From Brevundimonas sp. (GTDB lineage Bacteria > Pseudomonadota > Alphaproteobacteria > Caulobacterales > Caulobacteraceae), in the NCBI GenBank assembly GCA_052436175.1, contig JBQVNM010000009.1: a stretch of DNA of 64,000 bases; one strand, given 5' to 3'. Position numbers and translations under genes: made by a program. Of this stretch, positions 13,145 to 16,100 are shown piece after piece. Under the pieces are notes generated by a model that was given only the letters and a program-made list of their open reading frames with translations, had not been told where the DNA came from and did not search any database. Within the stretch, counting starts at the first letter, position 1. Each line of letters begins with the position of its first letter.

Positions 13145-16100
13145 TCAGGCGTAGTCCTGGATCGGCCGCACATCCAGGTCGCCGGCCTTGAGGGCGACGA
13201 TGGCGCGGGCGGCGGCCTCCGCGCCGGCGGCGGTGGTGTAGTAGGGGATCTTCATCATCAGGGCGGTGCGGCGCAGGCTGAAACTGTCCTGCAGCGACTG
13301 CTTGCCCTCGGTGGTGTTGAAGACCAGCTGGACCTCGCCGTTCTTCATCGCGTCGACGATGTTGGGGCGACCCTCCAGCACCTTCTTGACCAGACCCACC
13401 TCGAGGCCGCGCCCGGCCAGATAGTCGCGCGTGCCGCCCGTGGCGATGACGGTGAAGCCCTCGGCGATCAGCAGGCGGACCGCCTCGACCACGAAGGGCT
13501 TGTCGTCCTCCTTGACCGAGACGAAGGCCGTGCCGCCCCCGGGCAGGGTGGTGCCGCCGCCGATCTGGCTCTTGGCGAAGGCGCGGGCGAAGGCGGGGCC
13601 CATGTCGGCCTCGCCGTCGCGTTTCCAGTCCAGACCCATGACCTCGCCGGTCGACCGCATTTCCGGCCCCAGGATGGTGTCCACCCCGGCGAAGCGGGCG
13701 AAGGGGAAGACCGCCTCCTTCACCGCGATATGGTCATAGGGTTTGTCGGCCAGGCCGAAGGACTTCAGCGGCACGCCCGCCATGACCTTGGCGGCGATCG
13801 AGGCGATGGGCTGGCCGATGGTCTTGGCCACGAAGGGCGCGGTGCGGCTGGCGCGTGGATTGACCTCCAGCACGAAGATGCGCGGCGTGTCCGAGTGCGG
13901 CTCCTCGATGGCGAACTGGACGTTCATCAAGCCACGGACCTTCAGCGCCCGGGCCATGGCCTCGGTCTGACGCTTCAGCTCGGCGACGGTCTCGGCCGAC
14001 AACGACCACGGCGGCATCGAACAGGCGCTGTCGCCCGAATGGACCCCGGCCTCCTCGATATGTTCGAGCACCCCGGCGACGAAGACCGTCTCGTCATCGC
14101 ACAGGGCGTCCACGTCCACCTCGGTGGCGCGGTTCAGATAGTGGTCGATCAGGACCGGATCGTCGCCCGACACCCGCATGGCCTCGCCGACGTAGCGGTC
14201 CAGTCCCTCGCGGTCGTGGACGATCATCATGCCGCGCCCGCCCAGCACATAGGAGGGGCGCAGGACGACCGGATAGCCGACCTCCTCGGCCTTGGCGGCG
14301 GCTTCCTCGGCGCTGCGGGCCAGACCGTTCGGGGGCTGTTTCAGGCCGATGTCGTTCAGCATCTGCTGGAACCGCTCGCGGTCCTCGGCCAGGTCGATGG
14401 AGTCCACCGTCGTGCCCAGCACCGGCACATTGTCGGCCTGCAGCGCATGGGCCAGCTTCAGCGGCGTCTGGCCGCCGAACTGGACGACGCAGCCGATCAG
14501 GTCGCCCCTGGACCGCTCGACCTCGATCAGCTCCAGCACGTCCTCGGCCGTCAGCGGTTCGAAATACAGGCGGTCGGAGGTGTCGTAGTCGGTCGAGACC
14601 GTCTCCGGATTGCAGTTGACCATGATGCTTTCGACGCCGATGTCCGCGAAGGCGAAGGCCGCGTGGCAGCAGCAGTAATCGAACTCAATTCCTTGCCCGA
14701 TCCGGTTCGGCCCGCCGCCCAGAATTATCGCCTTCTTTCGGTTCGACGGCTCCGCCTCGCAGGCCGGAACCTGGCCCAGGGCGCCGGTCTCATAGGTCGA
14801 ATACATATAGGCGGTGGCCGAGGCGAACTCTGCGGCGCAGGTGTCGATCCGCTTGAACACCGGACGGACGTTGAGCGACCGGCGCAGGGTGCGGACTTCT
14901 TTCTCCGTCTTGCCCGTCAGCTGGGCGAGGCGGGCGTCGGAGAAGCCCATGCCCTTCAGGCGACGGAATTCACGGGCGTCGCCAACATCGACGTTAGAGC
15001 TCCCTTCCCCCTTGATGGGGGAAGGGCCGGGGTTGGGGGTGACGGCGCCGGACGTCGTGTCACCGCCGGCGAAGTCTGCTCCGACCGCTGTCACCCCCAT
15101 CCCAACCCTTCCCCCATCAAGGGGGAAGGGCTTTTCAGCGCCCGGCAGACCCTTGACCCGGATATGGCCCTCCTCGCGCACGATGTCGGCGATCTGGCGC
15201 AGGAACCAAGGCTCGTAGGAACAGGCGGCGTTGACCTCCTCGACCGTCAGGCCGTGGCGGAAGGCCTGGGCGATGACGCGGATGCGGTCGGGGGTGGGGA
15301 TGCCCAAGGCTCGCACCACCGCGGCGCGGATGGCGGCGTCGTCCTCGGCGCCGATCACGCCGTCGATCTCGATCTCGTCGAAGCCGCTGAGGCCGGTCTC
15401 CAGACCGCGCAGGGCCTTCTGCATCGATTCCTGGAAGGTCCGGCCGATGGCCATGACCTCGCCCACCGACTTCATCGAGGTGCCCAGCAGGGGCTCCGAC
15501 CCCGGATATTTCTCGAAGGCGAAGCGCGGGATCTTGGTGACGACATAGTCGATCGACGGCTCGAACGAGGCCGGCGTCACCTGGGTGATGTCGTTCTGCA
15601 GCTCGTCCAGGGTGTAGCCGACGGCCAGCCGCGCGGCGACCTTGGCGATGGGGAAACCGGTGGCCTTGGACGCCAGGGCCGAGGACCGCGACACGCGCGG
15701 GTTCATCTCGATCACGACCATGCGGCCGTCCTTCGGATTGATAGCCCACTGAACGTTCGATCCGCCCGTCTCGACCCCGATCTCGCGCAGGACATTGATC
15801 GAGCCCGTGCGCATGCGCTGATATTCCTTGTCGGTCAGCGTCAGGGCGGGGGCGACGGTGATCGAGTCGCCCGTATGCACCCCCATCGGGTCCACGTTCT
15901 CGATGGAGCAGATAATGATGCAGTTGTCCGCCTTGTCGCGGACCACCTCCAGCTCATACTCCTTCCAACCCAGCACCGATTCCTCGATCAGCACCTCGGT
16001 CGTCGGCGACAGGTCCAGACCGCGCAGGACGATCTCCTCGAACTCCTCGCGGTTGTAGGCGATGCCGCCGCCGGTGCCGGCAAGCGTGAACGACGGCCGG

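Follow-up and report, generated by a model that had tools for sequence, protein, structure and literature searches.

A palindromic repeat read in frame within carB of Brevundimonas: a probable MITE-like element in a putatively permissive loop

Palindromic repeats that are translated as part of a host protein have been described in Rickettsia, where the Rickettsia palindromic elements (RPEs) comprise RPE-1 to RPE-10 (Ogata et al. 2000; Claverie & Ogata 2003, as reviewed in PMC10969869, PMC2229807) and where the RPE-encoded peptide in the gmk product of R. conorii is retained in an expressed, active protein (PMC2229807). Intragenic palindromic repeats are also documented outside Rickettsia, in free-living bacteria (Di Nocera et al. 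2013, PMC3733652), and the bare phenomenon is therefore not new. Caulobacter and other alphaproteobacteria carry CIR, a repeat of about 100+ bp with TA termini, GANTC and six closed frames, which is described as strictly intergenic, without terminal inverted repeats and folding as two independent halves (PMC2229807). Here we analyse a 64,000-nucleotide stretch of Brevundimonas sp. DNA (contig JBQVNM010000009.1; hereafter the window), in which a 129-bp palindromic element lies in frame within carB, the gene for the large subunit of carbamoyl-phosphate synthase. The element, whose family is called type A, is probably a repeat resembling the miniature transposable elements with inverted repeats (MITEs), mobile now or recently in Caulobacterales, which landed in carB, is tolerated there in a permissive hotspot loop, and derives from a unit bearing a DUF559 gene.

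Coordinates are those of the window, and the element and carB are both on the minus strand. The type-A element occupies 15002..15130 and supplies 43 in-frame codons, CarB residues 492-534. Its two arms, read in the sense of carB and each encoding 14 residues, are a 5' arm at 15089..15130 and a 3' arm at 15002..15043; allowing one bulge, they form an outer stem of 42 pairs, two of them G-U, around a centre of about 45 bp (15044..15088) which differs among copies and has short internal pairing only. A repeat search recovered ungapped inverted arms at 15002-15038 and 15094-15130 (37 nt each, 89% complementary, 55 nt apart). Each arm includes a perfect 10-bp terminal hairpin with a 5-nt loop, CCCTTCCCCC-n5-GGGGGAAGGG, at 15106-15130 and 15002-15026 respectively, a pattern for which 0.00 occurrences are expected by chance in the shuffled window. 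The computed RNA fold of the element has an energy of -112 kcal/mol, against -67.7 +/- 4.6 for shuffles (z = -9.6), and the DNA fold one of -58.9 kcal/mol (z = -10.2 against shuffles). The element is 70.5% GC, has CC/GG ends, contains no GANTC and is open in three of six reading frames, that of carB among them; the translated peptide starts with PFPL, finishes with KGEG, is followed by S, and is rich in Gly, Pro, Ser, Thr and Ala. An earlier note on this DNA had likewise described a 129-bp palindrome with 41-42-bp arms inside carB, exactly 43 codons long and in frame, with the same translation. It had also related the hairpins to the cores of the window's intergenic "family-1" repeats, here type B: this holds for the architecture and for the terminal hairpin, which is similar (CCTTCTCCCC...GGGAGAAGG), but the subterminal sequence differs. 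An Rfam scan of the element gave no family above threshold, and the matches to eukaryotic miRNA-precursor, VA and C4 models, far below gathering scores, are generic long-hairpin noise. A promoter and terminator scan of the element region returned no such signal.

The host gene is intact. It extends over 13145..16603 (minus strand) and encodes 1152 residues with the complete CarB domain set (Pfam), aligning end to end with E. coli CarB; its closest full-length matches are CarBs of Brevundimonas, with 86-90% identity. The protein is 53 residues longer than the common 1099-residue Brevundimonas form and 79 longer than that of E. coli (1073 residues). Upstream, the element is preceded by ...VKGLPGAEK, of which GAEK (15131..15142) represents lineage-specific linker codons where empty alleles read GLP-TDPT-EFRRLK. 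Downstream stands a second lineage-specific linker, SSNVDVGDA (14975..15001), inside which the next modelled helix begins at CarB 538. Residues 1-486 and 488-1056 of E. coli CarB (1BXR) match residues 1-491 and 545-1137 of the window CarB, and the Pfam match to the oligomerisation domain ends at residue 485, at profile position 55 of 80. The location first proposed, an oligomerisation-domain linker between the synthetase halves, is thus right as to the domain but not as to the linker: the insertion lies in a loop (E. coli 486/488) and not between the halves. An AlphaFold2 model of CarB 395-625 (113-sequence alignment, mean predicted local distance difference test score, pLDDT, 79.7) comprises a helix at 465-484, a coil at 485-537 with block-mean pLDDT of 44-53, and a helix at 538-551, with flanks above 90. 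Given the low pLDDT of the coil within this helix-coil-helix arrangement, the insert is predicted to be a disordered loop, as had been expected, with a confidently modelled helix of the oligomerisation domain on either side; in the model, its position is that of the short E. coli loop around residues 480-487.

On the other strand, an antisense open frame of 1257 residues (13085-16858, +) spans all of carB and the element, whose +0 frame is open; its GC pattern is that of a non-coding shadow open reading frame (ORF), typical in high-GC genomes. Inteins are marked by an N-terminal Cys/Ser, a C-terminal His-Asn followed by Cys/Ser/Thr, and a splicing domain of at least about 130 residues. The 43-residue insert has neither the N-terminal Cys/Ser nor the His-Asn, and no Pfam match falls in the segment, so that an intein or mini-intein was rejected. 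Intron and programmed-frameshift readings are ruled out by the continuous ORF without splicing motifs.

Comparison with the best 120 Brevundimonas CarBs indicates that the segment is an insertion and that it is polymorphic, in agreement with what had been predicted. Ninety of the 120 have 1098-1100 residues and read GLPTDPTEFRRLK at the site, i.e. GLP(T/S/A)DPTEFRRLK between the flanking helices, and the 43-residue segment is also absent from E. coli CarB and from CarB fragments of Caulobacter and other alphaproteobacteria. The remaining 30 exceed about 1100 residues, and all those examined owe their extra length to this single site. Once trimmed of the site, 119 CarBs align in 1092 columns, which means that CarB has no other large indel.

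The occupants of the site are diverse. Type A (ten residues, then ...PSPIKGEG) is present in 8 CarBs, the window's included; type B, the window's family-1 (LPSPLGGEGG...PPSPPRGEG), in 3; type C, related to A (ALPLDGGGLGGG...PFPVEGKG), in 3; type D (PSTPSGSPSP...SGEGDREAVEG) in 9; type E (HPGECRGPD...DPGIRRDE) in 1; and type F (SADLQVR...DADVDVRAP) in 4. One further CarB carries a 7-aa remnant (ADEGDEAA), and one long CarB (P0132, 1149 aa) is unclassified. Among complete Brevundimonas genomes, CP080376 (PAMC22021) has type D' at the site and CP097649 (B. albigilva) type F, and LR732816 (sp. G8) is empty there. A single CarB codon position is therefore held, across Brevundimonas lineages, by six palindrome types (A-F) that make up five or six families. 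At the DNA level, where the insert-bearing alleles L001-L005 and L127-L130 were compared with the 7-aa remnant L006 and the empty allele L007 as references, all nine inserts are long palindromes, with minimum free energies from -43 kcal/mol (the ~60-bp type F) to -139 kcal/mol; the remnant and empty segments fold at merely -29 and -20 kcal/mol. The occupants are unrelated in sequence and measure from about 60 to 153 bp. Type D recurs in the intergenic DNA of L002 and type B at least five times in the window, so that other carB occupants, too, are dispersed repeats. Hybrid elements in two other loci (L008, L126) combine one type-A arm (CCCTTCCCCC) with one type-C arm (CCCTCCCCC), which suggests that types A and C recombine or are sub-variants of one superfamily. 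When the element is removed, the flanks of the window copy align best with the short remnant allele L006. The possibility that this copy is nested in the remnant of a small type-F palindrome was rejected, since its flanks fit type F poorly and L006 better.

Insert types do not track the CarB tree (neighbour-joining, protein distances). P0216 and P0222, with 98.0% identity outside the insert, carry types C and D respectively, and P0126 (type A) and P0234 (7-aa remnant) are 97.9% identical; type-F alleles are nested among empty-site alleles, the nearest of which is 96.8% identical. Turnover at the carB site is fast relative to CarB divergence.

Type A is also dispersed well beyond carB. When one genome of each species was scanned for the arm pattern GGGGGAAGGG-n7/8-GGGGGTGA, at least 119 loci were identified. 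Among the matches listed, 85 are titled Caulobacter, Brevundimonas, Phenylobacterium or Caulobacteraceae/Caulobacterales, and most loci from unrelated taxa are without the hairpin and look like chance matches. The matches listed include 24 complete copies of 121-155 bp, whose length outside genes shows no restriction to multiples of three. No second type-A copy was found in the 64-kb window. The carB, ribD and methyltransferase copies have conserved arms and variable centres, a pattern repeated in the peptides, and the window carB copy shares its arms with the RibD copy. A carB copy (L001) and a copy in an MmeI-type methyltransferase gene of a different Brevundimonas (L113) are near-identical, centre included, which points to recent movement. 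The 24 complete copies are mostly flanked by CT or AG (CT on the left in 13, CT...CT or AG...AG in 8, CT...AG in 4), and this CT/AG may belong to the element itself. Two complete type-A elements (L034, 2787-2914 and 5255-5383) are present in a metagenome-assembled genome labelled Alsobacter soli (Rhizobiales); either the family reaches beyond Caulobacterales or the bin is contaminated.

Protein searches were uninformative as to further in-frame hosts. A profile of 11 type-A peptides, compared with a collection of 5.8 billion proteins in a search that seemingly matched on length, found only ORFs of 34-74 aa lying over intergenic copies. The 43-aa peptide gave 7 weak matches among 50%-identity representatives, namely short ORFs and two giant low-complexity proteins. 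The 34-74-aa ORFs are gene-caller "hypothetical proteins" (P0241-P0263, e.g. P0250, CSW63_07695 [Caulobacter sp. FWC26]) and are probably spurious genes.

Copies within genes were screened for an open frame spanning the element and a coding-type signature of GC at third codon positions (GC3) on both sides, followed by translation and Pfam analysis. Among the matches listed, this yielded eight further in-frame type-A insertions in real proteins, each confirmed by Pfam: in the E2 acyltransferase of 2-oxoacid dehydrogenase in two species, where the element separates the lipoyl from the E3-binding domain or one lipoyl domain from another (L008, L089); in QueA (L011); in the stretch that joins the two ABC domains of an ABC-F ATPase (L064); in the MmeI-type methyltransferase (L113); between DEAD and Helicase_C in an Lhr helicase (L126); in a RibD_C protein (L122); and, as a half-element, in a Methyltransf_28 protein (L099). 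In-frame genic copies represent 6 of 13 Brevundimonas loci among the matches listed, a non-random sample. The element is thus not unique to carB: other in-frame copies, for which the earlier note had proposed to search, occur near-identical in bona fide Brevundimonas and Caulobacteraceae genes, and with them the proposed analogy with RPEs holds at the functional level. Genic type-A copies are read in open frames, in either orientation, and this restriction bears the mark of a selection filter like the one reported for the RPEs of Rickettsia (PMC10969869; PMC2229807).

Two of these host genes have further features. The ABC-F gene (L064, 1992-3968) carries two in-frame elements, the type-A copy and a type-B-like one, LTLPSPQWGEGG..., before the C-terminal domain. 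In the E2 genes (L008, 3-1157; L089, 821-2524), palindromes lie on both sides of the lipoyl domain (L008) or between two of them (L089), where they stand in place of the usual Ala/Pro-rich linker; this arrangement may represent an element-mediated domain duplication or linker replacement.

The origin of the short palindromes is suggested by longer forms with the same ends. DUF559 proteins are Vsr-like PD-(D/E)XK nucleases. In several loci of the scan, two type-A arms stand about 400 bp apart around a DUF559 ORF (PF04480, E = 6e-29 in L055); eight intact type-A long forms, which measure 427-443 bp and have an open frame throughout, were observed in L055, L066, L079, L082, L096, L098, L100 and L111. 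Their arms closely match those of the window element, and an arm of the L079 form equals that of the window element at 41 of 42 positions, as compared by eye. The window itself holds a long form of type B (60229..60663, minus strand), in which arms at 60229-60283 and 60611-60663 surround a DUF559/Vsr-like nuclease ORF (domain at 60292-60609, PF04480, E = 3e-35) that begins just within one arm and terminates within the other. Type-C-like hairpins flank a DUF559 ORF in L035, and in L121 such a hairpin is present on one side only. Three arm types are each paired with a DUF559 gene, which argues that the short palindromes are likely internally deleted derivatives of DUF559 units; most simply, the 129-bp form is a MITE-type derivative of this kind. 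On this basis it may be hypothesised that the DUF559 nuclease mobilises the short palindromes. The DUF559/Vsr clade includes a homing endonuclease (PMC3424549), and a literature search found no paper on DUF559 genes flanked by such repeats. A bolder and distinctly speculative extension, to which we give little weight, is that DUF559 nucleases within long hairpin-ended inverted repeats constitute a class of autonomous mini-elements that has gone unrecognised in Caulobacterales and, probably, in further Proteobacteria, that the 110-155-bp palindromes are their MITE-like derivatives, and that the nuclease cuts structured palindromic DNA (cruciform, hairpin or mismatched), making resident palindromes preferred entry points. 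If true, a palindrome-cutting nuclease would explain how five or six families succeeded one another at one carB codon.

Several other explanations deserve consideration. The distribution of insert types could have arisen if each family had inserted at carB at most once and the alleles had then spread by homologous recombination of carB segments, a possibility that we regard as real although not the likelier course of events. Linker codons do travel with the type: at their left junction L002 and L130, the two type-B alleles, read GGTCTT|CCTTCTCCCC, and GLPG-A(E/D) is common to types A and C. The presence of differing types in 98%-identical CarBs also fits a short recombination tract. However, at least five or six independent insertions would still be needed at one codon of a 3.3-kb gene, so that the hotspot persists even under allele exchange, and the F-type alleles nested in empty-site lineages have flanks of their own. 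A different source has to be considered for the element itself, which resembles a REPIN, i.e. two inverted repetitive extragenic palindromic (REP) hairpins moved by a REP-associated tyrosine transposase (RAYT), an IS200/IS605-like enzyme. Like a REPIN, it has two inverted 25-nt hairpins and folds as a whole into one long hairpin, and intragenic REPs are documented in free-living bacteria (PMC3733652). Nevertheless, GTAG is present in neither strand, CGTC occurs in the centre of the element only and not at the hairpin ends, and more than 10 loci have a DUF559 gene, not a RAYT, between the same arms. Neither the window nor the loci showed a RAYT, whole genomes not having been searched for RAYTs. 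A REPIN identity is thus improbable.

It is also improbable, and if anything slightly more so, that the segment is a selected feature of carB, such as a regulatory mRNA hairpin (for RNase III cleavage or a translational pause between the halves) or an adaptive flexible linker. The RNA hairpin is very stable, with its 42-bp stem and -112 kcal/mol, and would be a plausible RNase III substrate, and the site is filled in about one quarter of the sampled Brevundimonas CarBs; but about three quarters of congeners have no insert, the occupants are unrelated and vary from about 60 to 153 bp, and the same element is found in unrelated genes and in intergenic DNA. Moreover, the element has no terminator- or promoter-like signal and no Rfam family above threshold, and its peptide is predicted to be disordered. 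Finally, GC-rich sequence with low-complexity runs, together with the single member in the cluster of the window CarB, might raise the suspicion of an assembly or annotation artefact or of a non-mobile, lineage-specific low-complexity expansion. The chance of this is negligible: inserts of the same type occupy the same site in several independent assemblies from ENA, JGI and NCBI (for example P0124, with 6 member sequences, P0142, with 27, and P0129, from NCBI), which disposes of the artefact that had been named as a possible refutation; near-identical copies occur at unrelated loci in other genomes; and the frame is intact, with flanks collinear with those of orthologues.

The explanation that we favour, a MITE-like repeat tolerated in carB, may be outlined as follows. 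A type-A copy would have landed in carB of one Brevundimonas lineage and persisted there because its length is a multiple of three, its frame is free of stops and its peptide is rich in Gly, Pro, Ser, Thr and Ala, and because the short loop that links two oligomerisation-domain helices may tolerate additional disordered residues. Selection would presumably purge copies that are out of frame, in closed frames or badly placed. The element would be transcribed and translated as part of CarB and its peptide, by analogy with Rickettsia, retained without harm. The hotspot could be due to an unusually permissive loop, which the first element would turn into a neutral, in-frame landing pad of more than 100 bp; the lengthened loop might then host further insertions, deletion of unstable palindromes and allele exchange. 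DUF559 would supply the nuclease activity for movement.

A number of points weigh against this outline. The mobility of type A is deduced here from sequence comparisons, and retention of the peptide in mature CarB, together with unaffected enzyme activity, is an assumption taken from RPE-bearing Rickettsia proteins. The listed scan loci are a non-random sample, which limits what the proportions among them can mean. No consistent direct repeat that could represent a target-site duplication was found at the 24 complete copies, despite the CT/AG enrichment of their flanks, and native flanking sequence is replaced by the element, not purely extended, in the E2 linker as well as at the carB site. 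On a neighbour-joining tree of protein distances, independent events may seem more numerous than they were if carB alleles have undergone homologous recombination, and the safe minimum at the carB site is one insertion per family. To our knowledge, DUF559 is not a recognised transposase. In C. crescentus, a DUF559 protein reportedly causes SOS-inducing damage and was proposed to be a T:G mismatch-repair nuclease (PMC12907096). Given such a role, and no known transposase function, the DUF559 gene could be cargo.

The window contains other repeats, and the carB copy is the only one of the window copies that is intragenic. Intergenic short forms of type B, the family also found at the carB site in L002 and L130, are located at 37731-37887 and 58139-58288, and a type-B arm fragment at 17202-17238. 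A hairpin, CCCTCTCCCG-n-CGGGAGAGGG, occurs twice outside long ORFs, at 17067-17087, near the type-B fragment, and at 37091-37111. A 111-bp palindrome at 41869-41979, with 31-nt arms that are 90% complementary (CCGTCATCCTCGGGCTTGACCCGAGG...), belongs to neither family A nor B and sits between the ORFs 40464-41846 and 42010-44022. An inverted repeat at 17991-18069 (GGTGAGTAGTGCTAGTGAGCATGAGGTGAG...), whose 30-nt arms are 90% complementary and stand 19 nt apart, lies directly upstream of a minus-strand HAD-hydrolase-like ORF (17264-17962) and is unlike the C/G-run elements in composition.

These observations add Caulobacterales, free-living and of high GC, to the bacteria with translated selfish palindromes in essential genes, which are best known from Rickettsia and its reduced genomes. 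With filled, empty and remnant states among congeners, the CarB loop represents a natural turnover experiment, and could be used to measure the dynamics of insertion, replacement and excision and to follow how proteins gain disordered linkers. The DUF559 long forms are a concrete candidate for the mobilisation of palindromes, a problem unsolved for RPEs and many MITE-like repeats, and suggest that the "solitary Vsr-like" genes under study in Caulobacter may have a selfish-element setting. At a practical level, such palindromes generate spurious short "hypothetical proteins", length heterogeneity in marker genes and broken Pfam domain matches.

How the type-A element relates to known repeats can be judged from its properties. 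An identity with CIR was rejected on the properties summarised in PMC2229807, the comparison being one of descriptions. The two have in common a length of about 100+ bp, an occurrence in Caulobacter and other alphaproteobacteria, and copies between genes; however, type A has 42-bp terminal inverted repeats, CC/GG ends, no GANTC and three open frames, and is found within genes. Type A also resembles bacterial MITEs such as Correia/NEMIS, ERIC, RUP and YPAL, of which ERIC and the 107-bp Correia also have intragenic copies (Delihas 2008, PMC2229807). It has the size, terminal inverted repeats and copy number of a MITE and no coding capacity for its own mobilisation. The two share a small, non-autonomous, multi-copy nature, terminal inverted repeats, a transcript that folds into one long stem-loop, and a longer element with the same ends that encodes a protein. 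Type A differs in having neither TA ends nor a clear target-site duplication and in the perfect 10-bp hairpin at the end of each arm; furthermore, its long form encodes a Vsr-like PD-(D/E)XK nuclease (DUF559) and not a DDE transposase.

REP and REPIN sequences (Bertels & Rainey 2011, PMC3116915; Di Nocera et al. 2013, PMC3733652) share with type A the inverted hairpin doublet that forms a larger hairpin. REPs prefer sites downstream of convergent genes, and the type-B copies of the window lie between converging ORFs; REPs are also occasionally in frame in replication, repair and other genes, to which they add 20-30 residues (PMC3733652). The elements described here have no GTAG/CGTC tag, their arms reach about 17 nt past the hairpin, and their partner gene is DUF559 and not RAYT. 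The nuclease recalls Vsr-like homing endonucleases such as I-Bth0305I and the "fractured gene" nucleases (PMC3239194, PMC2677866; clade PMC3424549), which are likewise encoded by small PD-(D/E)XK genes on selfish elements that reside in essential genes without destroying them. Those enzymes are located in group I introns or between split inteins and have a single cognate site, whereas here the ORF, in copies known from sequence data, stands within long inverted repeats whose short form is dispersed, and the insert would, by analogy with RPEs, stay in the mature coding sequence.

There is a close parallel with RPEs: in both cases, palindromic repeats some 100-150 bp long, with inverted arms and an open frame through the element, occur between genes as well as in frame in conserved housekeeping genes, at positions compatible with the fold, with several families per genus. 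The elements nevertheless differ in composition, at about 70% GC here as against AT-rich Rickettsia, and it is on composition, rather than by comparison of sequences, that they are set apart; with 70.5% GC, homology to the Rickettsia families is implausible and the element is not filed as an RPE. The hosts differ too, a free-living, high-GC organism with a genome of about 3.3 Mb as opposed to an obligate intracellular one with a reduced genome, and here five or six families have in turn occupied one codon position. We know of no DUF559-like long-form partner described for RPEs. The literature on Brevundimonas, MITEs and CIR gave no earlier description of these elements, and CIR, strictly intergenic, is the sole Caulobacter repeat met there, in agreement with the earlier note, which knew of no equivalent described for Caulobacterales. 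What appears to be new is thus the Caulobacterales family itself, the occupancy of one loop of an essential enzyme by several families of palindromes, and the DUF559 long forms.

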